Of a stretch of 64,000 nucleotides of DNA, positions 18,157 to 46,946 are shown in pieces. Below the pieces are notes generated by a model. It searched no databases. It was not told the DNA's origin and saw only the letters and a list, made by a program, of their open reading frames with translations. Within the stretch, counting starts at the first letter, position 1. Each line of letters starts with the position of its first letter. The translations under genes and the position numbers were made by a program. The DNA comes from a virus: the IMG/VR virus record IMGVR_UViG_3300032073_000008, positions 46,318 through 110,317 of that record, one strand, 5' to 3'.

Positions 18157-19305
18157 TTATTTATTTTTGATCATATTATATTTTTCTTCTAAGCTCTTAG
18201 CTGAACAATTGGCTGGATGTTCTATTTGACAAACAACCTCACCATCAACCTCAATATCCCACAAATAATTTAATGTTGTCTCAAACACTTCAGGAACATA
18301 ATCTGGAGGATAATCAACCTCAAGCTCAGGTAATGAATAATCTTCATGCAACAACATTTGCTTTTCCATATTGCATATCTCTTGGTTAAAAGGAAATAAC
18401 CATTTGTTATTATTCTCACCAAATTCACCAACTTGACAAACAACTCCAGGATTGCTAGTATCATAGATATATGTTGGCGGTTTTTCCACATTGCAAAACA
18501 TTTCTAATCTTCCATGATAAGATTCATTTTTAAGAATAAAATATTGTGCTGTATCTTCTCCTACAAGAAGAAATTCTTTAAATTTATGTACTGCTGCTTT
18601 TCTAGAATACCATGTTACTCTGCAGTGAGCTTCAAATGTTTCGCAATATTTTTGTTGTTTAGCATAATATATTAACATCTCTAATCTATCGCCTTTAGAT
18701 ATTTTCCTATCACTTGATAGTCCAGCGATGACTTTATTCCATAATTCTTTCTTTCTTACTTTACCATCAGCAGAATCTAATAGGTTAAGTGTTTCAGGTT
18801 CACCATTTACAGTAAAAATTAAATTTGGTTTAACCTTGATATATTCTTCTGGTATATCACCAAGTTTCAATTCATTTTGATCAACATTATTTTCTTTTAT
18901 CCATGTGTCAACAAGATTTCTATCCCAGACAAGAGCCATTTGATTTTTCATGCAAATAACATCTGGTGGAGAGTCTTGCTCAGCTATTCTTTTATACATC
19001 CAAACGCCATGTTGTGTCAAATAATCATCACCGTCAATCATAACAAAATAATCTTGATCACTCTCTAAAAATAAATCAAGCACACTGTTCTTTCCACGCG
19101 ATGCAGTTCCGTTAGAATCTGTGACATAATGTTCTATATCTCTAGAGGAACACCACTCTTTCGCTTCAGCTTCATACTCTTTATCTAAAGTATTGATTAC
19201 AACAATAAGATCTTCCTTTGGTATTGCACTATAATCTGGGTGAATGTGTCTTTCAAGGCAATTAATTGATCTAGTAGTTAATACATAAAATTTCATTTTA
19301 TTCAT
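18157..19305 (-). CDS. Putative GT-A fold glycosyltransferase
   Basis: SNGTASRGKNSVL...DYFVMIDGDDYL (DxD motif) and a later VGEDT motif. Confidence 0.65.
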   Translation of the reverse strand: MNKMKFYVLTTRSINCLERHIHPDYSAIPKEDLIVVINTLDKEYEAEAKEWCSSRDIEHYVTDSNGTASRGKNSVLDLFLESDQDYFVMIDGDDYLTQHGVWMYKRIAEQDSPPDVICMKNQMALVWDRNLVDTWIKENNVDQNELKLGDIPEEYIKVKPNLIFTVNGEPETLNLLDSADGKVRKKELWNKVIAGLSSDRKISKGDRLEMLIYYAKQQKYCETFEAHCRVTWYSRKAAVHKFKEFLLVGEDTAQYFILKNESYHGRLEMFCNVEKPPTYIYDTSNPGVVCQVGEFGENNNKWLFPFNQEICNMEKQMLLHEDYSLPELEVDYPPDYVPEVFETTLNYLWDIEVDGEVVCQIEHPANCSAKSLEEKYNMIKNK

Positions 19306-19925
19306 CTATCAATCCTTTTTATCCAACTGCTGTCTTGAAATACTTTTGTTGGTCTTTTGATAATTTCATCTATAGCCTGCACGCATCCAGGAAATGCTGG
19401 CTCATCTGTTTTGGGGAATTGAGGAAATCTGTAATCATGCCCACCTATAAAACCCCCAGTTTTAACTTTTGGTATGTAATTAATCAAATCAGATTTAACT
19501 GCTTCATAGCTATGGTTAGCATCAATGTAAATGAAATCAAAATATTCGTCTTGAAATACTTCGTGGATATTTTGGCTGAAATCTCTATGATGCACAATAT
19601 TATGATAATGTCTGGTATTTAAAAGAAACTGATTTTCAACAAACTCCCAGTCATAAAAATTCTCATCATTAAATTGTTCTTCTCCAGTGAATGGCTCTAT
19701 ACAATGTATTTCTTTAAATAAATTTGCCATACCAAACATAGCTGTTGATTCGCCCATGTAACTACCAATCTCGAGCATTTTTGCTTCCTTCACACCTCTT
19801 TTTTGCAGATCTTGTATTAATCTAAAAAGACCAGTCACAAAAACATTACCTTTGAACTCACTAAAAAATTGTGGTGGTGTGAATCTAAGTGAGTATAAAA
19901 CTTTGTCATCTCTTGTGTATGTCAT
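19302..19925 (-). CDS. Class I SAM-dependent methyltransferase (Methyltransf_24-like)
   Basis: MLEIGSYMGES, FDFIYIDANHSYEAVKSD, GGFIGGHDY; ATG 19925 overlaps the upstream TGA (ATGA). Confidence 0.88.
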   Translation of the reverse strand: MTYTRDDKVLYSLRFTPPQFFSEFKGNVFVTGLFRLIQDLQKRGVKEAKMLEIGSYMGESTAMFGMANLFKEIHCIEPFTGEEQFNDENFYDWEFVENQFLLNTRHYHNIVHHRDFSQNIHEVFQDEYFDFIYIDANHSYEAVKSDLINYIPKVKTGGFIGGHDYRFPQFPKTDEPAFPGCVQAIDEIIKRPTKVFQDSSWIKRIDR

Positions 19926-21796
19926 AAAGTATCTCCTGTGTACCTCGAAGTCCACATTGTCAGACTATATTTAACGCCACTCGTCAACTCTTCACACAAG
20001 TGACCGTGTGTTACCATTCCTGGAAATAGTATACACTTACCAACTTCTATATTTTTATTGGTGATATTTTGTCTTGGAAAAACTAAATCAGCACCCTCAT
20101 ACTCATCATTTAATTTTACTGATCCAGTAATCATGCTTGCGTCACAGTGATGGTTTAGGCTCTTTTGTGTTTCTAGACAATACCTCATAACAAACGCATC
20201 GCGTAATCCATACATTAATGTTGGTTTCCAGAATGCTTCTGTTATAGGATAAATGTTTTTCTGCCAATGGTTTTCTAATGCTTCAAAAGCACCAAACTCT
20301 GACATTCGTATTTCATAAGCTGGGAACTTATCTCCTTCCAATGGCTCCCACCCACCATGATTGTCTGCCATCGCAATCAAGTCTTCGCATTGTGATTGTG
20401 TCATGAAGTCTATGACTAACATATCATCGGATATAACATCAACCCCTTTGTAGTTTGGTATATACAACATTGGTGTTGACATCTTAACAGAGTTTCTTGC
20501 AGCATTAAATTTTTTCTTTGCTTCGTCACCACCGTTTCCATGATAGATACACCCAAATGTATTAGTGACAGGATTTAAAAATTTATTTTGGTCAACATCA
20601 TATTTCACTTGTGGCTCGTGACATTGGAATATGTAACCCTCATAGTCCAGCTTCATGTCATAATCACCAGACAAGAATGCTTTCTGATAAAATAGTTGAT
20701 CATCTGAAGAGTTTTCAATAGTGGCAGAGCTGAGTATCTTTTTCAGCTCACTTACAACCCCAATAAATGTACCGCTGTTTAGGTATCTATACTTTGTGCC
20801 ACCATCTGGGAACTTTTCAGCAAGGGATTTATCTGGCCAAATCTCTGTCTCGGATGAGAATAAAACTTTTGTTCGGAAGCTGAGATATCTTCTAGTTATC
20901 TCCTCAAGGTCAGAGAAATACATCACATCATATGCATCAGTAAAAAGAACAACATCGTTGTCTGGGAGTTCATTCACATAGTCTCTGAGGATATTAATCT
21001 TATGACCACCCCCAGTTGATTGCATAGTGCCACCTTGCCACTCAACACCTTTACCGAGATTTTTAGGATAAACACCATACAACGCAGCAGTGTCATTTAG
21101 AGGAGCACATTTTTTTATGTCAGTGCCAATTGTTACAGCGTGTGTATTGAAGTCAATGAAGAAGTCAGCTTCATTATTATTTTCTATATCTGATGACAAC
21201 AAAGATCTGGGTGTTTGCTTTATAACATCATCTTTAAATGCAACAACATTCATATTGTCTATCATTATAGGAAGATATTCGTCTACTGGTATTATTGCTT
21301 GATCAACATTCCCATCAATAAGCTGTTGTGCTGTTTTTGGCGTTATAGCATAAGCATGGGCGTTATATGGATATGATGGAACTTCAAGCTCATCATCTAT
21401 TGAAACAACCTCGTCAGGTCTATTTTCGTTCCTGCCAAAATAGACCATATCATATTTTTTTATTAGTTTATTTGCTTTCTTGTCGGTGTAATTATCTCCA
21501 ACAATCGCATCATCTTCTAATATGAGAACTGGTTCATTTAATTCGATGCATTTCAACCACGCTTCTCGATGAGATAAAGTGCATCCAACCTCTGATTTTT
21601 TAAGTTTTCTATTTAAGAAAGGATCACGCCAAGACAAATGCGATGAAAACCCAATGCCCTTCAATGCTTTGAAATCTAATCCAGAAGCATCTATGGCATT
21701 GAGCCATTCATAATTTGTTATTTTTGAATTTACTTTTAAAAAGTGTTCCTTGCGATCTGTTCTTCTCGCAAGATTTATAACCAACTTTTTCATCAA
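19922..21796 (-). CDS. Three-domain GT25 / PLOD-type glycosyltransferase / 2OG-Fe(II) lysyl hydroxylase-like fusion
   Basis: GT25: VINLARRTDR, EVGCTLSH, ILEDD, PVDEYLP. PLOD GT: GGGHK, FTDAYDV, WPD, YLNSGTFIG, DDQLFY, IFQ, HGNG. Hydroxylase: FVMRY...SLNHHCDAS, LNDEYEG, FPGMVTHGH. Confidence 0.88.
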   Translation of the reverse strand: MMKKLVINLARRTDRKEHFLKVNSKITNYEWLNAIDASGLDFKALKGIGFSSHLSWRDPFLNRKLKKSEVGCTLSHREAWLKCIELNEPVLILEDDAIVGDNYTDKKANKLIKKYDMVYFGRNENRPDEVVSIDDELEVPSYPYNAHAYAITPKTAQQLIDGNVDQAIIPVDEYLPIMIDNMNVVAFKDDVIKQTPRSLLSSDIENNNEADFFIDFNTHAVTIGTDIKKCAPLNDTAALYGVYPKNLGKGVEWQGGTMQSTGGGHKINILRDYVNELPDNDVVLFTDAYDVMYFSDLEEITRRYLSFRTKVLFSSETEIWPDKSLAEKFPDGGTKYRYLNSGTFIGVVSELKKILSSATIENSSDDQLFYQKAFLSGDYDMKLDYEGYIFQCHEPQVKYDVDQNKFLNPVTNTFGCIYHGNGGDEAKKKFNAARNSVKMSTPMLYIPNYKGVDVISDDMLVIDFMTQSQCEDLIAMADNHGGWEPLEGDKFPAYEIRMSEFGAFEALENHWQKNIYPITEAFWKPTLMYGLRDAFVMRYCLETQKSLNHHCDASMITGSVKLNDEYEGADLVFPRQNITNKNIEVGKCILFPGMVTHGHLCEELTSGVKYSLTMWTSRYTGDTL

Positions 21797-21854
21797 CCAC
21801 TCCGCAACATAATCAAATTTATGCTACTATATAGGAGTTGTAAAAAAGATGATT

Positions 21855-22019
21855 TTATCCTTTCTTCTGTTCCATCCTACCAATAGCATCTAAAGAAGCA
21901 AATGTACCAATAGCAACAACAACAATACCCATTGTCAATGACATTTGCTCATTGTCCATACCTCCAACAGCACCGAAAATTAAAAAGAAACCTAACAATA
22001 ATTGAATTGCATTTAACAT
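21855..22019 (-). CDS. 54-aa two-helix membrane protein
   Basis: MLNAIQLLLGFFLIFGAVGGMDNEQMSLTMGIVVVAIGTFASLDAIGRMEQKKG*; manual translation, not in the ORF track. Confidence 0.6.
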   Translation of the reverse strand: MLNAIQLLLGFFLIFGAVGGMDNEQMSLTMGIVVVAIGTFASLDAIGRMEQKKG

Positions 22020-23508: not shown

Positions 23509-24588
23509 TTAGCCCAAAGGCTTACTGAGTTCATCCCAGCTTATTTCATAGTCGTTGTTGGAGTCTGCATATTTCATTATGCCGAGTTTCTCATATTCAG
23601 GGATAAATTCTGTCCTGAGCAGTCCTATCCTTTTCAGATTAGGCATTATCCGAGTGAATAATGTACTCTGGAACTTTCGTTGAATCCAATGGGGTGGATC
23701 CATTTGATAATCTTCGGTGTATTCAACATCCATACCATAATGCTCCCACAGAGCAAATGGCTTTAGATTTTTGCGACTAATCGTGCATGCTTCGAGAGCA
23801 AACTTCGCTCTATCATATTTTTCTTCTTCACTCAATGTTTCAATATACTCTTTAAGGTATGTCACACCAAAAGCAACATGCCTTGCTTCGTCTCTTAATA
23901 TCAGCTCTATCATTCTTTTATATACTGGATCGTCTGCTGCTTCTTTTGCTACACTGAATGCAGCCAATGCAAATCCTTCTAGGATTACTTGCATGCCAAG
24001 AAATTTAAGATCCCATCTTGGATCTGTGAGTATTTTATCTAACAACCCTTTGAAGTGTCTATTGACTGGCCAAAGTTTATTGAGTCTTGTTTGGATATAT
24101 TTGTTAAATGCTTCTACATGTCTTGCTTCATCAAATGCTTGACTTGCAGCATATAGTTTTGCGTTGTATGTGGGTGCACAACTACATAACTGACTAGCCA
24201 CTAATAATGAACATTGCTCTCCATGTAAGAACTGGCTGTTGTACCAAGAGAACATATCAGATAAGAATTGTACTCTTTTCTCTTTACTCCAACGCTTGTA
24301 TACTTTATGATTTTCCCATTGAGCATTCTCAAACTCAAACATGAAACTTGTGATTCCTGGATATTCAATAGACCAATCTATATCAAGCTCAACATTCCAG
24401 TTTAGCTTTTTACCAAGCTCATAAAGTCTTTTAATACGATCATCGTGCAGAGAGTAATCCCAGTTGTAACTTCCAACTAGAGGTGTTTCAAAAGTTTCTA
24501 TTATATCAGATGGCTCGAGGTCGGGGATAATGTCTTCACCGCAAAGTTTTATTTCTTTCGGTGGTGTCTTTCTTTTGTCAATCTGCAT
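23509..24588 (-). CDS. Ferritin-like diiron protein (AurF/N-oxygenase-like family)
   Basis: SQFLHGEQ, QAFDEARHVEAF, ILEGFAL, LRDEARHVAFG: two EXXH motifs plus two Glu ligands. Confidence 0.85.
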   Translation of the reverse strand: MQIDKRKTPPKEIKLCGEDIIPDLEPSDIIETFETPLVGSYNWDYSLHDDRIKRLYELGKKLNWNVELDIDWSIEYPGITSFMFEFENAQWENHKVYKRWSKEKRVQFLSDMFSWYNSQFLHGEQCSLLVASQLCSCAPTYNAKLYAASQAFDEARHVEAFNKYIQTRLNKLWPVNRHFKGLLDKILTDPRWDLKFLGMQVILEGFALAAFSVAKEAADDPVYKRMIELILRDEARHVAFGVTYLKEYIETLSEEEKYDRAKFALEACTISRKNLKPFALWEHYGMDVEYTEDYQMDPPHWIQRKFQSTLFTRIMPNLKRIGLLRTEFIPEYEKLGIMKYADSNNDYEISWDELSKPLG

Positions 24589-25311: not shown

Positions 25312-26219
25312 TATTGTGGTATTCTCCACTTGCCCATTAAATGACCCATAACTTGGTTTCTTTCACCATCAGAGAGCAATCTATTATAATTTATAATTTC
25401 CATTATATGACCACTAAACATTGCAAAGGTTGAATTATTCTGGGCGGTGCTGTTGCCTAAGGTATTAAATCCTGATCCTCCAACCATCCACCTTGTTCCT
25501 ATGTTACCAATTTTTGTTTTTGTTTGACTATCTGCAGCATCTGTCCCAGTGTTTGTTAATGTCATGCGACTACTACCAATTCCTGGATCACTATAAACAA
25601 CTCTTGTACCTGCATTCAATTGTCCATTATGTCCATTTGTTGAGTGGCTGTCAGTATAGTTTGTTTGATGCTGTATCAAAGCATCAACACCATCAGCTAA
25701 ATTAGTGGCAATTTCTATTTGAGCATCTGATGTACCAGTAGCTGTAGCAGAAGAACCGCCCATAGCAAATACATGGTCTTCATCATCACCAAATTGGGCA
25801 TCTGTCCCATCACCGCCCAACAATATACCATTTCCAGACTCTAACGCTTTAAGTCTAAAATAATTTGTCGCATAAGGTGAAGTTCTTAAAGATGTTGCTG
25901 TTTTATTTAAAACTATAAAGACAGTGTATTGAAACTCATTCCACTGCGGAGCAGTAGTATGCATTATTTCGTTAAATTGGAATCCATCTGGTCCAAAAAC
26001 TACTGATGGCAACCCATTTGAAGGAGAAGTTGAGGTTGATGGTTTTTTGTTATCTGCACTTTGTGTTGCATGATATCCATTACCAGACTTATCATTCCAT
26101 TGACTAATCAGTCCACTGCTTGAAGTGATACTACTACTGTCCGATGCATCTAACCATTGGTATAGATTTGGAATATCACTTGGAACAAATGATTGAGCAA
26201 CAACTGCAGCACTAAACAT
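25311..26219 (-). CDS. LamG/concanavalin-like lectin-domain virion protein
   Basis: WLDASD...WNDKSGNGYHATQ...FSGHIMEIINYNRLLS...KW. Confidence 0.7.
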   Translation of the reverse strand: MFSAAVVAQSFVPSDIPNLYQWLDASDSSSITSSSGLISQWNDKSGNGYHATQSADNKKPSTSTSPSNGLPSVVFGPDGFQFNEIMHTTAPQWNEFQYTVFIVLNKTATSLRTSPYATNYFRLKALESGNGILLGGDGTDAQFGDDEDHVFAMGGSSATATGTSDAQIEIATNLADGVDALIQHQTNYTDSHSTNGHNGQLNAGTRVVYSDPGIGSSRMTLTNTGTDAADSQTKTKIGNIGTRWMVGGSGFNTLGNSTAQNNSTFAMFSGHIMEIINYNRLLSDGERNQVMGHLMGKWRIPQ

Positions 26220-29200
26220 TAACTGATACCACCACCGAATATGGTGAGAGTATCTGAGCCAGTAACAACAAGCTCAGCAACACCACCTGAAGCAATAGTG
26301 CTGTTTGCACTTAATGCAGTAAATGAACCGCCTGAAGCAAAGTTTAATGTTATACTGTTAGTTGTTTTATCTAGTGTTAATGCTTGTGTTGTAGAGTTTA
26401 CAACTGTAAATATCTGACCAACAGTGCTAACAGAAGGAATCTTAAATATATTCACACCGCCAGTATGTGTGTTTATAACTTTCTTGTTTGCTTCCATTGT
26501 GTATGTTGTATTTGCAGCACTGATAACAACAGTTGTTGGATTTGCGGTTATACCACCAGATACATTTAATGACCCACTTAGTTCTAAATCAGAATAAAAT
26601 GTTGAACCAGCACCTTCTAAGCTCAACACTTCAGCATTAGTTCCTGCTGTTATAGCATCGAACCGTATACGACCATCTTCTGTTCCATCAGATACATCAG
26701 CAATCTCAGCATAAATTGATCCATACTGAATCTTTTCTGCGGGTGATGATGGTGGATTTGCTGTATCATTAATCCCAAAAAATCTTATAGCTCCTAATTC
26801 ATCATTATCTGACGCACTGTGCAAACCAGTTCCTGATTTACGATATAACTCTAAAACAGGATTTTCAGTCTGTCCTTCTGTAGTATCAAAACTTATTAGC
26901 GATAATGATCCAGAATTTAAAAACCCAGTTGAAGGATTATAAGTTAGACCGTACTCTCCAGTATGATCTCTAAGACCATTTGATTCATCATGAAATACAA
27001 CTGGTAAATTTGAATCCGTTAGCGTTGAGTCAGCAGTTACAGTAACCGTTGTCGCAAGAGTGGCTGTTGCCGCAGTCCCAGTAGTATCTTGGTTAAGAGT
27101 TGCTACCCTTGCTGCAGCAATTGTACCAGAGTTTATCTGTTCACCACTAATAGATTTATTTGTTAGCGTGTCACTACTTGAGGCAGTAATAAATGAACTT
27201 AACTCTGAGTCTCTAGCTATGCCACTTGGAATCCTTGCATCAGCTATTGTCCCAGTTAATTGACCAGCATCAATAGATTTATTTGTTAGTGTATCACTAC
27301 TAGATGCTGTGATAAACGAGCTCAAATCTGAAGTAAGAGCCATTGTACCAGCAGCATTAGGGAATGTAATATCTAATGTACCAAATGAACCTGCACCATC
27401 TACTTGAGCAGGAGCTTGCAATTTAATTGCATTTGTTCCATTATCAGTGCCTTCTCTAAATACAACAGCACCGCCAGTTGTAGTGCCTAATGCTGACATT
27501 GTCAAACCACCTAATGTGCTGGTGGTTAATGCAGTCTGTACTGCACTTGTTACAACATCAGGTATTCTCGCATCATCTATTGTTCCAGTTAATTGACTAG
27601 CATCAATAGATTTATTAGTTAATGTGTCAGTGCTATCTTTTAAAACGACTGTGCCAGATGCATTAGGTAATATGATTTCTCTATTAGTATTTGGATCATC
27701 GCAGTACAAAGTTGTTCTTATTGATGAACCTGTTGTATTACCTTCAAATTGTATATTGCCATTTTGTCCTAATATTAAATCATTATCTGATCCAAGCAAT
27801 ATTCCTGCAGGTGCTAATGTCATAACTGGATCTTCAACAGTACCATTATTTAAGATACCAAAATCTAATCTTCCATATTCAGCATCAGATGTTGGATCAG
27901 CTATCTCAGCATGAATGGTAGCATATTCTGTTTTGTTTCCTGCAGAGTCTTCACCATTGAATTTTATAATACCCAATTTATCATTTGTTGCAGGAGATGA
28001 AGAGTTACGATGTAATGAAATAATAGGATCAACAGCAGTTCCAGTATCAGGAGCAATAACTTCAAAAATATTACCACTAATTTGGTTTTGAACAAGTGGT
28101 CCAGTAACAGTTAATGAGCCCAATGTGCCGACACTTGTTAATGATGAAGATAATACAGTAGAGCCTAATTGCGTTTGACTCAGGATATCATTACCGTTGA
28201 TTCTAAATTGTTTAGTAGATGCAAGTTCGAAGTTTTCAGATGATGTCCAAGAATCAGTTGAGTTGATCCAATTGATTGTTTTGTCAGTTGAGCCTTTTAA
28301 TGTAATACCACCACCATCAGCAGTAGTGTCAGAAGGTGATGTGACAGAGCCAAGCTCTATGTTTTTATCATCTACAGTTAATGTAGTAGAGTTTACTGTC
28401 GTTGTAGTGCCATTAACAGTCATGTCACCATGAACAGTTAAATTGCCAGAAACATCACCATTACCATTAATATCTAATCCGCCAGCTGTAACTGTGTTGG
28501 CACCAACATCAATATTACCAAACCCTGATGAAATAGAACCAGAGTTTAAAGCACCAGTACCAACTACATGTGATAAGTTTGTGTTAACTGAAAAAACATT
28601 ATTAGAAAATACTGATGTGTTTGCAGTTAATGTTAAACCAGTACCTGCGTCAATAATAGGTTTAGGTCTTAAGAATGAACCATTCGCAGAAAGGAACAAA
28701 TAACTGCTTTGATTATTAGCAAATGCTCCACCCAAATTGTTTAAAGCTGCATTAGTCTCTAATGAAATTACATTATTGCCAGTTTGATCACTAATAACAA
28801 TTCCTGTTCCACCATAATACAGCGTGTCGGTATCTATTGGGGCAGTAAATTGACCTCGTGCGTTTAAGAAAGCAACAGTATTTCCTGAAGAATTGTCACC
28901 GCCTAAATTGGTTAATGCTGCACCAGCACTTAATGAAATTGCGTCTTTGCCTTCTTGGAAATCAGTATTTGAGTTTAGTGTTACTGTTATCCCAGTACCG
29001 CCATAATATTGTTCTGTAGCAGACCAGATACCATCATGTCTTAGGAATCTGGCTTGATCACTAGGATCATATCCAAGATTTATTATTGCAGCATTGGAAG
29101 AAAGAGAAAATTGATTATCAACATTTAAGTCGAGACCAGTCCCAGCTGTAAAGTTTTTAATGAATGTGCCATCTTTTCTCAGAATGGCTGTGGTATTTGC

Positions 29201-30118
29201 TCCATCACCGCCTAAATTAACTAGAGCAGAGTTTGCAGTAAGAGAAAGTGTATTGCCAGATAATGTAATTCCAGTACCACCAACCAAAGCTGTTTTAGAA
29301 ATTTCTATACCAGCTGAAGCATTTACATCTGCATTTACGATCGATCCTGCAGTTATAGAAGCAACACCTTGATTCGTGATTGCAATGTCACCGCTTATAC
29401 TCTTGTTATCAAAACTATCAGTTCCATCATGTATTATAAACTGACCAGAACTTGGACTTGTTATAGTTGTATCAACTAATTCAGCAAGAGCATCTTTGCC
29501 AGCTGATGTCGCATCAACATACGCTTTAATTGATTCTGATGTGGGAACATTTGTATTATTAGCTGAACCAAAACTATCATCATCAATAAAATTTGTTATG
29601 GTTACTGAACCTGTTCCACTGAATCCGTCAGCTTCAAGAGTTCCTGTAACATCAAGAACAGTATTGCTAGTTGCTCTTATCTGCGTTGTGTCAACCCAAT
29701 TAGTATTTGCTGACTCATAAACTAAAAATGCACCATCTTGCGGATCAGTTATCTTTACTTCTGTAACAAAATCAACAGCACCTTCTCTTGTAACTTCTTG
29801 TGTTACTGTTACTTGCCCCTCAGCAAGACGCGACCGTTTGTTTGCATCAGTTGTCAACTCAATATCATATACATAACGACCAGCAGGAAGCGAAGAAGTT
29901 TGTGCTCTAGCCAAAGAGATAGTAACTTCACCTTTCGTTCTATCACCAAATGTCACAGTAAAGTTTGTTGCTGTGTCTGATGTAAATGACTTACGAATTT
30001 GACCAGCAGCACTAAACCCAGTTACATTTTGTACTGTTCCGTCTGTGTTTTTAGCGATAAGTGTTTCAGAAAAATCAGTACCCTGATCTACTGTAAGATT
30101 TAGCTTTTGAGATGCCAT
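26219..30118 (-). CDS. Tail fibre protein (1299 aa)
   Basis: N-terminal baseplate-attachment-like domain (DQGTDF, GQIRKS, GRYVYDIEL), GTTTTVNSTTLTVDDKNIELG, repeated DTLTNKSI motifs. Confidence 0.8.
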   Translation of the reverse strand: MASQKLNLTVDQGTDFSETLIAKNTDGTVQNVTGFSAAGQIRKSFTSDTATNFTVTFGDRTKGEVTISLARAQTSSLPAGRYVYDIELTTDANKRSRLAEGQVTVTQEVTREGAVDFVTEVKITDPQDGAFLVYESANTNWVDTTQIRATSNTVLDVTGTLEADGFSGTGSVTITNFIDDDSFGSANNTNVPTSESIKAYVDATSAGKDALAELVDTTITSPSSGQFIIHDGTDSFDNKSISGDIAITNQGVASITAGSIVNADVNASAGIEISKTALVGGTGITLSGNTLSLTANSALVNLGGDGANTTAILRKDGTFIKNFTAGTGLDLNVDNQFSLSSNAAIINLGYDPSDQARFLRHDGIWSATEQYYGGTGITVTLNSNTDFQEGKDAISLSAGAALTNLGGDNSSGNTVAFLNARGQFTAPIDTDTLYYGGTGIVISDQTGNNVISLETNAALNNLGGAFANNQSSYLFLSANGSFLRPKPIIDAGTGLTLTANTSVFSNNVFSVNTNLSHVVGTGALNSGSISSGFGNIDVGANTVTAGGLDINGNGDVSGNLTVHGDMTVNGTTTTVNSTTLTVDDKNIELGSVTSPSDTTADGGGITLKGSTDKTINWINSTDSWTSSENFELASTKQFRINGNDILSQTQLGSTVLSSSLTSVGTLGSLTVTGPLVQNQISGNIFEVIAPDTGTAVDPIISLHRNSSSPATNDKLGIIKFNGEDSAGNKTEYATIHAEIADPTSDAEYGRLDFGILNNGTVEDPVMTLAPAGILLGSDNDLILGQNGNIQFEGNTTGSSIRTTLYCDDPNTNREIILPNASGTVVLKDSTDTLTNKSIDASQLTGTIDDARIPDVVTSAVQTALTTSTLGGLTMSALGTTTGGAVVFREGTDNGTNAIKLQAPAQVDGAGSFGTLDITFPNAAGTMALTSDLSSFITASSSDTLTNKSIDAGQLTGTIADARIPSGIARDSELSSFITASSSDTLTNKSISGEQINSGTIAAARVATLNQDTTGTAATATLATTVTVTADSTLTDSNLPVVFHDESNGLRDHTGEYGLTYNPSTGFLNSGSLSLISFDTTEGQTENPVLELYRKSGTGLHSASDNDELGAIRFFGINDTANPPSSPAEKIQYGSIYAEIADVSDGTEDGRIRFDAITAGTNAEVLSLEGAGSTFYSDLELSGSLNVSGGITANPTTVVISAANTTYTMEANKKVINTHTGGVNIFKIPSVSTVGQIFTVVNSTTQALTLDKTTNSITLNFASGGSFTALSANSTIASGGVAELVVTGSDTLTIFGGGIS

Positions 30119-35233
<5,115 letters not shown>

Positions 35234-46300: not shown

Positions 46301-46946
46301 GTATACCAGCATCAACAATTGCAGAATGACCAGAACCATCAGTATCTGACAATAATCTAATTGGCTCTAAGTGATTGAATGAACCTTTAATATTTGATAC
46401 ATTAATTTGCATCAAATCCCTGCCTTTAACAATGCGACCTACCACATCTTCAACAAGAGCTTGGGCATTCGATTCAGTGCCAACAATTGTTTTTCCTATA
46501 AAGTCATAATTATTTTGATTGTAGTTTGTTACTAGGTAGCGATCAAGTTGCCAATCGCCATCAGATATTTTCAACATCTGATCAGCAGGAAAATTAACCT
46601 CAACATCTTCATTGTAAATTGCCCTGAACATTAACTTATAAGAAGCTAATGAGCCACGAGTTTCGTTATAATATTTTACATACTTTGCCATTAACCGCTT
46701 ATCAGATAACACATCATGCGGTACTGATGGGAGGAGTGTTTCTTGGAAATGAGTTAAATACTGATCTAAAGTTGTGTTTATATCTTTGTAATCTTCTAGA
46801 TTTTGTATGGCTTCGGTCAACTTTCCATTCTGCTCAAGGTACTCATAATATCCTTCAATAAAAGCAAGGAAATTTTGCCCTTCTTCCTTATAGAAGTCTG
46901 GAAATTGATTCGCGACCTGCGTAGATAACTTTGATTTTATTGTCAT
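43335..46946 (-). CDS. gp7: Baseplate wedge initiator (gp7-like)
   Basis: QFPDFYKEEGQNFLAFIEGYYEYLE, SYKLMFRAIYNE, IQDSDFYQEFSY, HPAGQKMFG; between gp6 and gp8. Confidence 0.78.
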   Translation of the reverse strand: MTIKSKLSTQVANQFPDFYKEEGQNFLAFIEGYYEYLEQNGKLTEAIQNLEDYKDINTTLDQYLTHFQETLLPSVPHDVLSDKRLMAKYVKYYNETRGSLASYKLMFRAIYNEDVEVNFPADQMLKISDGDWQLDRYLVTNYNQNNYDFIGKTIVGTESNAQALVEDVVGRIVKGRDLMQINVSNIKGSFNHLEPIRLLSDTDGSGHSAIVDAGIHRIEIVSPGAKYQAGDIVKLESDKIGDFGKVVVTDTVDLNGSLTFTLIDGGSGYTEVSSDPNQGGSVVTISGGDGDTAASFTITGSDIDETFAISTNVTLLGSNTIFGFNAPDILNADYSTRKMATFANTIIGSPTLGFRESNEVTNNGLFRDNVESSLHVANTLTIGVGASLYGVSSGANATVTAITDATDGAGKFTTDGYRKFITSIRNRVNYSEELDNNYWNDLRCGAIANQTLAPNGTLTAEKIVEDASDNSHLITLASSFLQNSTQYTTSVFLKAGSSDRNAALRLSTGGAFPAVKFNLQNGTIVSTHGDLTSSIKDVGNGWYRVTMTGTTSGSGSHNVQLNMTDGSNVISYQGDITKHIFAWGFQVETAATATEYQKVVTDAFGTGETLLIVNTSGSSAGKVTSFAGNTIGYHILDVANTGGQTVALGDEIVSTTNFYANTADTTLTGEEVYSYGVVKKVISTTPYLYEHNTTANVVQSNTVNSSSNNVTSTNIGTVFGRGDVIKAGGQAPSRRVVSVTDDNTIVVTPAFSPALSGAAYGKGGVFRHVVKCRVSANNSANLSNQFDFGPLQGFVERDGVRKVGSSTIVGNVHFSTSNTELETVYSKLEDSLVFKTQTFGTIDQLSGRVGGSGFTVAPKVDVTESGIASLGIGEQFLTIQSGTESNVTVDTNDGILQSSSGASGDIKAGSTYGAPTVTSYSNGQFETVIRVWQPPLQRFPNGKTFANNTNATIKKFSSSYVPGTTDTRSVDSTTTVKIVKVVDRGILGQNANIRADVGANGTITGLRVADSGFSHDQNEEVKVESTGRVDSTQAVVRLKLQNAANSEGYYATSRSHISTKRGFIQDSDFYQEFSYQLAVPLSLKRYKEVAMKLAHPAGQKMFGKFKSHSNTNLNVILSANNTFRKNATGTFTFTNGSFNITGTGSAMESQFANGGVIIIQKSAGVYYKVPLNIVSSDTVANTTIAWSNGTFTTTALYTTGSIG

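Follow-up and report, generated by a model that had tools for sequence, protein, structure and literature searches.

Two animal proteins and a small set of mimivirus proteins are the closest described counterparts of the gene presented here. LH3 (PLOD3; PDB 6fxk) combines a glycosyltransferase (GT), an accessory (AC) and a lysyl hydroxylase (LH) domain in one chain, and the galactosyltransferase COLGALT1 (GLT25D1; PDB 9evj, 8zgc) is a separate protein with two domains, GT1 and GT2; the structure of the human LH3/COLGALT1 complex has already been solved (8zgc). In mimivirus, the 895-residue protein L230 joins an N-terminal part that is GT25-like and contains an EDD motif to a PLOD1-like C-terminus. 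Both of its activities have been shown experimentally; its substrates, which it hydroxylates and glucosylates, are collagen-like proteins of the virus itself that are poor in proline (PMC9614988). Two further mimivirus genes encode the GT25-like R655 and R699, a glucosyltransferase that acts on galactosyl-hydroxylysine (Gal-Hyl), not on glucosyl-hydroxylysine (Glc-Hyl) (PMC9546862). Here we describe a phage gene whose product unites relatives of these domains in a single, compact chain. It lies in a window of 64,000 nucleotides, which represents positions 46,318 to 110,317 of the 110-kb IMG/VR virus record IMGVR_UViG_3300032073_000008 (estimated completeness about 61%) and whose own numbering is used throughout. 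We consider it likely that this three-domain enzyme hydroxylates and glycosylates lysines in the phage's own collagen-like tail fibre.

The reading frame (19922-21796, minus strand) is open over 624 codons. Translation probably starts at the second codon, an ATG at 21793, and not at the TTG at 21796, since all homologues begin with MKK and a GGAG stands 6 nt upstream of the ATG. A preliminary description of the locus, made from the sequence alone, had proposed that COLGALT-like and LH3-like domains coexist in this chain, with a GT25 domain at the N-terminus and without the AC domain. Pfam, PDB sequence matches and structural comparison agree with it on each of these points. In Pfam, the protein scores 85.2 bits with Glyco_transf_25 (PF01755), well above the gathering cut-off of 24, and 177.5 bits with GT_PLOD (PF25342), and PHROG 61 (‘2OG-Fe(II) oxygenase’, 689 positions; 2OG, 2-oxoglutarate) covers it from end to end (3e-130). 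Among PDB sequences, residues 5-188 match the catalytic domain of COLGALT1 (1.6e-16), residues 239-426 the GT domain of LH3 (1e-27) and residues 458-613 the LH domain of LH3 (2e-6), while R699 is among the top matches of the central domain (1e-32). Searched alone, the first domain finds COLGALT1 at 3e-17 and the last finds LH3 at 2e-7 and L230 at 2e-5; with a profile of the family, the matches to COLGALT1 and L230 improve to 1.3e-33 and 1.4e-13.

Likewise, the AlphaFold2 (AF2) model of the enzyme is of good quality (mean pLDDT 87.8, pTM 0.84), and its domains superimpose in Foldseek on the same proteins: the PLOD-type GT domain on that of LH3 (6wfv; TMt 0.85, rmsd 2.2) and on R699 (rmsd 2.3), the GT25 domain on COLGALT1 GT2 (rmsd 2.1-2.4), and the LH domain on that of L230 (PDB 6ax6; TMt 0.73, rmsd 2.2-2.5), its best structural match. 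The AC domain is absent, because only about 8 residues separate the PLOD-type GT and LH matches and PF13704, which represents AC-type segments, has no match in the protein. A counterpart of the non-catalytic N-terminal GT1 domain of COLGALT1 is also absent, given that the GT25 domain begins at residue 3 and PF13704 finds no match.

Judged by sequence, every best solved relative of the three domains, namely LH3, R699, COLGALT1 and L230, is a collagen-lysine enzyme. The placement of the GT25 domain is based on PDB profile scores and Foldseek. With the family profile, COLGALT1 scores 119 bits, a bacterial GT25 protein (8xlz) 42 bits and R655, a weak and far more distant match than COLGALT1, 48 bits; in the LH region, the profile matches L230 with 53 bits and also LH3, while no prolyl hydroxylase chain in the PDB reaches E<1. 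The stand-alone bacterial GT25 enzymes of lipopolysaccharide (LPS) synthesis, proteins of about 250 residues, are thus not the closest relatives of the phage domain, and the original assignment to COLGALT and PLOD relatives rather than to LPS GT25 enzymes or generic prolyl hydroxylases stands. Foldseek gives the same order: bacterial GT25 structures rank lower at an rmsd of about 9, and so do prolyl hydroxylases, whose E of about 1e-6 falls behind that of the LH domain of L230 (1e-10).

These scores bear on a reading in which the enzyme modifies host envelope glycans, in the manner of LPS-type GT25 proteins, or host proteins, so that it would have an auxiliary or takeover role and its proximity to a fibre gene would be incidental. 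Database names point in this direction, as homologues are labelled ‘GR25 family glycosyltransferase involved in LPS biosynthesis’ and PHROG 61 is classed with moron/auxiliary metabolic genes. However, the labels are automatic, and the GT25 domain is far nearer to COLGALT1 than to its bacterial namesakes. Furthermore, the three-domain enzyme is a virus family that is near-absent from cellular genomes: among 185,579 species genomes, only 5 carry the gene, every one of them on a contig of a metagenome-assembled genome (MAG). Together with the fibre linkage described below, this makes a role in host modification scarcely credible.

The catalytic centers of all three domains are intact. In an alignment of 34 full-length homologues (49-89% identity), the GT25 residues R12, C72, E94-D95-D96 and D172 never vary; the residues of COLGALT1 to which they align, R351, C412, E435-D436-D437 and D522, are needed for activity (PMC12003778). 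In the PLOD-type GT domain, the invariant D287, D290 and H419 correspond to the Mn site of LH3 (D112/D115/H253) and the invariant D365-D366 to D190-D191; W319 aligns to W145 of LH3 and is replaced by Tyr in a few relatives. In the LH domain, the HxD...H iron ligands, reported as intact in the preliminary description, are H550, D552 and H599, equivalent to H667, D669 and H719 of LH3, and invariant as well. The same description had noted that the 2OG-binding Arg of PLODs (R729 of LH3, in the motif ‘GTRY’) is replaced here by Lys (K609, ‘GVKY’). This substitution is real, is invariant among the 34 homologues and is a trait of the family: in LH domains cut from 95 cluster representatives, all of which retain HxD...H, the position is Lys in 36 of 43 compact, AC-less forms (Arg in 7) and Arg in 36 of 39 AC-containing forms (Lys in 3).

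Given the Lys in place of the PLOD Arg, the dioxygenase might instead be a prolyl or other hydroxylase, or a dead domain with a structural role. K609 stands ten residues past the distal H599, at the spacing of Arg729 in LH3, and in the collagen prolyl 4-hydroxylases C-P4H and Cr-P4H the C5 carboxylate of 2OG is likewise bound by a Lys ten residues past the distal His. The phage domain also shares its double-stranded β-helix fold with prolyl 4-hydroxylases (C-P4H, Cr-P4H, PBCV-1 vCPH and B. anthracis P4H), which produce weak Foldseek matches, and the fibres of some relatives contain G-P-T triplets. By contrast, lysyl hydroxylases are the only significant sequence matches of the domain, the prolyl 4-hydroxylase family PF13640 finds no match in the protein at E<=1, and the fibre proposed as substrate has no proline in its triplets. 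Moreover, since Lys and Arg replace each other in both compact and long forms, K609 appears equivalent to Arg729, and the substitution looks conservative, with no sign of inactivity. With a dN/dS of 0.06 relative to the closest relative (L002, 91% protein identity), the gene is under purifying selection, and the dioxygenase, with its intact center, does not look inactive. A prolyl hydroxylase or a dead domain is therefore highly improbable in our view.

Compared with LH3, the phage protein has the same DxxD-plus-His Mn site and poly-Asp motif, the same aromatic residues for uridine stacking, the HxD...H ligands and an equal spacing to the basic 2OG-binding residue, at an identity of only about 16-28%. 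It differs in the missing AC domain, the fused N-terminal GT25 domain and the Lys at the Arg729 position, and it is phage-encoded and cytoplasmic, with no signal peptide context. With COLGALT1, it aligns along GT2 and keeps R351, C412, the EDD motif and D522, but it lacks both GT1 and the C-terminal loop with D570. L230 is the nearest precedent as a viral one-chain fusion with a GT25-like domain upstream of a lysyl hydroxylase (PMC9614988), yet it belongs to a virus of eukaryotes. R699 and R655 are separate genes in mimivirus, whereas their counterparts are fused in the phage protein. In sum, the latter is a full member of neither animal family and may work like LH3 and COLGALT1 together, or like L230 and R699.

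The enzyme is tightly, near-obligately linked to Gly-X-Lys (GxK) collagen-like fibres. In the window, the fibre gene at 30119-35230 matches Collagen (PF01391, 1.5e-29), Peptidase_S74 (6.7e-15) and tail-fibre PHROGs, and it is the only gene with GxK repeats in the 110-kb record. Of its 57 collagen-like triplets, 48 have Lys in the Y position, none contains Pro at all, and the succession K-G-E/D occurs in 25. For related loci, we queried IMG/VR with the homologue alignment. Collagen-like runs lie within 10 kb in 49 of 80 enzyme-bearing loci, and where at least 7 kb of upstream sequence is available, 31 of 32 viral contigs have a Lys-rich run, encoded on the strand of the enzyme gene and lying 2 kb away in the median. 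Lys is the commonest residue in the Y position of these runs, and the motif G-x-K-G-Q-K-G-E-[VIT] is recurrent. The linkage also holds in reverse: a DNA pattern for G-x-K-G-Q-K-G-E retrieved 80 loci, 22 of them with the enzyme, always downstream and on the same strand. Among contigs found by the pattern only, the enzyme is present in 11 of 14 with at least three copies and at least 5 kb of downstream sequence, against 0 of 22 with less than 3 kb downstream. In IMG/VR as a whole, matches were confined to about 500-600 contigs out of 2.9 million. If the enzyme acted on host glycans or host proteins, such a two-way association across myo- and podovirus backgrounds would be hard to explain.

Cultured phages carry the gene as well, namely S-CAM9, S-PRM1, S-8S53/55/56 and CRP-6. 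In the myovirus S-CAM9 and the 45-kb Roseobacter phage CRP-6, a fibre with GxKGQKGE is followed 0.7-2.3 kb downstream by the enzyme gene, which is annotated only as ‘hypothetical’ or ‘2OG-Fe(II) oxygenase’; in CRP-6, the fibre is gp60 and the enzyme gp58. In S-CAM9, the stretch from the collagen-like fibre gene to the enzyme gene also contains two further small 2OG-Fe(II) oxygenase genes (gp029-030; L001 6839-8004), so that hydroxylations of different kinds may occur on the fibre of this phage.

We favor a trifunctional enzyme because domain homology, intact centers, purifying selection and near-obligate linkage to GxK fibres converge on it. In the proposed sequence of events, the LH domain would convert the Y-position lysines of Gly-X-Lys triplets in nascent fibre chains to 5-hydroxylysine, before or during trimerization. 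The N-terminal GT25 domain would then transfer a hexose to the hydroxyl group, galactose (Gal) by analogy with COLGALT1, and the central PLOD-type GT would add a second one, for which LH3 and R699 as models suggest glucose (Glc). Finally, two proteins encoded downstream, a GT-A-like protein and a methyltransferase (Table 1), could extend or methylate the glycan. What we infer from these comparisons is the chemistry itself, which sugars are attached, and the role of the glycan for the fibre, be it stability, solubility, host recognition or protection. That the fibre hydroxylysines carry exactly the Glc-Gal pair is possible, with chances that we place at even or slightly below.

Several points weigh against this proposal. 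Lys-Gly-Glu/Asp pairs stabilize proline-free triple helices without any modification, so that richness in Lys need not imply hydroxylation. In the window, the distance from enzyme to fibre gene is about 9 kb, more than the median of the family, and other genes lie in this interval. At the position of COLGALT1 W495, which the human enzyme cannot do without (PMC12003778), the window protein (‘YPYNAHAY’) and most of the family have Asn, and only a minority has Trp. Furthermore, the GT25-like domain of L230 transfers Glc and not Gal (PMC9614988), which leaves the first sugar uncertain.

The last two points also favor a variant in which the fibre lysines are hydroxylated, but the glycan is other than Glc-α1,2-Gal-β, for instance Glc-Hyl as produced by L230, just one hexose, or a methylated chain of greater length made with the help of the downstream GT-A-like protein and methyltransferase. 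Likewise, 11 loci have a conserved, third GT-like gene right behind that of the enzyme, and methyltransferase domains recur as neighbors or fusion partners. Against this variant, the residues for donor and metal in COLGALT1 (C412, EDD and D522) are kept in the GT25 domain, and R699 uses Gal-Hyl, not Glc-Hyl (PMC9546862); by this specificity, the retention of a PLOD-type GT favors a Gal-Hyl intermediate. We therefore regard a different glycan as unlikely.

To place the protein among its relatives, we analyzed the wider family. In IMG/VR, it comprises more than 500 contigs, and a profile search of 1.84 billion representatives yielded 549 proteins at E<=1e-30. Among the best 150 of these 549, about 45 have the compact GT25-PLOD-GT-LH architecture (600-700 residues), with 4-50 residues between the PLOD-GT and LH domains. 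About 39 are ‘long’ forms (830-1160 residues), in which a PF13704 segment of 220-400 residues occupies this place. The latter represent the architecture of L230, which likewise retains an AC-type segment between GT and LH, and mostly have Arg at the 2OG site; their tentative assignment to giant viruses is based only on this architecture and an Atlas lead. Other architectures include GT25-PLOD-GT proteins, with or without AC, that lack LH, versions ending in a methyltransferase, and split forms. Split or partial architectures are seen in P0201, P0202, P0207, P0213 and P0214 (417-434 residues) and in P0198, P0199, P0209 and P0211 (425-464 residues); they are of two kinds, PLOD-GT-LH without GT25 and GT25-PLOD-GT without LH, and some are possibly truncated gene calls. 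The three modules thus seem to exist also as separate genes in some viruses. Short proteins of the P0132 type, considered as two-domain GT25-LH forms, were rejected as such, for they consist of GT25 and a degenerate PLOD-GT remnant.

In trees of the LH and PLOD-GT domains, built as unrooted quick searches with 17 named animal PLODs included, the window protein falls into a compact clade of 53 members (SH-aLRT 100), and the animal proteins form one clade (99). In the LH tree, the compact clade is separate from the AC-containing forms. The tree neighbors of the animal PLODs are the long forms, with a mean path length to animals of 1.91 against 4.19 for the compact forms in the LH tree, and of 2.07 against 2.66 in the PLOD-GT tree. 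Being unrooted, the trees give neither the direction of transfer nor the order in which AC was gained or lost. The phage protein alone says little on the origin of animal collagen glycosylation, because its clade is more distant from animal PLODs than the AC-containing fusions; here the preliminary description, which saw a bearing on evolutionary origins, went too far. It also overstated the novelty of the fusion by presenting it as a ‘Rosetta stone’: a fusion of GT25 and lysyl hydroxylase has been known since 2011 from L230, chains of 830-1160 residues combining GT25 with PLOD (GT-AC-LH) are common in metagenomes, and the LH3/COLGALT1 complex precedes it as well. The AC-less phage form, however, is uncharacterized so far, and work on this system has until now been confined to animals and giant viruses; in the literature searched, which left most subscription journals outside its coverage, we found no phage lysyl hydroxylase or phage Hyl glycosylation.

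The virus itself is a marine cyanophage, and the enzyme is predicted to act in the cytoplasm of the infected cyanobacterium. The major capsid gene in the window shares about 70% DNA identity with gp23 of T4-like Synechococcus phages. Nearly all genes of the window lie on the minus strand, and a tail-fibre/baseplate block surrounds the enzyme gene. Just 5' of the latter, at about 21816-21823, stands the motif CATAAATT, which resembles the T4-type late promoter TATAAATA and would fit late expression alongside the structural genes. A small hydrophobic open reading frame (21854-22018, minus strand) is found just upstream of the enzyme gene.

Among the downstream neighbors, the methyltransferase gene (19302-19925) is missing from all 80 related loci, which rules it out as a conserved part of the system; a role as an accessory glycan O-methylase is possible. 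Elsewhere in the family, a Methyltransf_24 domain is fused to the N-terminus of a compact enzyme (P0181), and in P0426-P0442 (about 920 residues) a methyltransferase domain replaces LH on the GT25-PLOD-GT scaffold. Taken together, neighbor and fusions hint at a recurrent methylation of the product. The GT-A-like gene (18157-19305) directly follows the enzyme gene in 11 related loci and is a conserved partner of it in a subclade. The AF2 model of its product (pLDDT 76) finds TarP, TarS and RmlT in Foldseek at about 4e-7 with poor rmsd; a further, third glycosyltransferase of the same pathway is plausible on this model, though not established.

Two genes between the enzyme and the fibre deserve mention. 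An AurF-like/ferritin-like di-iron oxygenase of 359 residues (23509-24588, minus strand; PF11583, 1.8e-11) has a counterpart in 0 of the 80 related loci. The second gene (26219-30118, minus strand) encodes a virion protein of 1299 residues with homologues in 9 of the enzyme-bearing loci; its N-terminus is similar to phrog_3304, an L-shaped tail-fibre assembly protein. Elsewhere in the record, outside the window, lies a separate frame of 208 residues (G000:C1:8236-8475) with a weak match to 2OG-FeII_Oxy_3 (21.9 bits, below the cut-off).

Table 1. Features of the enzyme locus and of the collagen-like fibre gene, in window positions
Feature	Positions	Strand	Remarks
Three-domain enzyme gene	19922..21793	-	623 aa from ATG; listed TTG at 21796 one codon further upstream
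GT25 domain, like COLGALT1 catalytic GT2	21275..21790	-	Residues 3-174; PF01755 7e-24; predicted hydroxylysine hexosyl (Gal?) transferase
PLOD/LH3-type GT domain	20486..21103	-	Residues 232-437; PF25342 3.5e-52; predicted Gal-Hyl glucosyltransferase
Lysyl-hydroxylase-like 2OG/Fe(II) dioxygenase domain	19931..20464	-	Residues 445-622; matches to LH3 and L230
Tail fibre with three collagen-like blocks and C-terminal Peptidase_S74 chaperone	30119..35230	-	1703 aa; proposed substrate
Collagen-like block 1	31742..31984	-	27 triplets (GEK/GQK/GLK)
Collagen-like block 2	31172..31306	-	15 triplets
Collagen-like block 3	30791..30925	-	15 triplets
Methyltransf_24-type methyltransferase	19302..19925	-	PF13578 1.3e-17; ATG overlaps enzyme stop (ATGA 19922-19925)
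GT-A-like protein	18157..19305	-	382 aa; DGDD and GEDT motifs invariant; no Pfam or PHROG match

The glycosylation of hydroxylysine in collagen is commonly ascribed to animals, mimivirus being the known exception. The compact family, reduced to the three catalytic modules, would move this chemistry into phage virion assembly and the bacterial cytoplasm. Tentatively, and with rather less than even confidence, we propose that many marine phages, including T4-like cyanophages and roseophage-type podoviruses, display Glc-Gal-Hyl on proline-free GxK fibres, that this glycan is made in the cytoplasm by one AC-less polypeptide, and that it is needed for fibre stability or host recognition. The cultured carriers make this hypothesis directly testable. 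On the side of the enzyme, the Lys/Arg interchange and the lost AC domain are also informative for the roles of the 2OG-site residue and of AC in LH3. Human collagen in its glycosylated form is still out of reach for bacterial production, because the human glycosyltransferases express poorly there (PMC9546862). For this task, an obvious candidate is a phage enzyme shaped by evolution for activity in bacterial cells; the earlier idea of a single-enzyme tool for recombinant collagen seems reasonable. If the proposal is true, one gene could serve for making glycosylated recombinant collagen in bacteria, and collagen-type Hyl glycosylation would be a widespread feature of ocean viruses.

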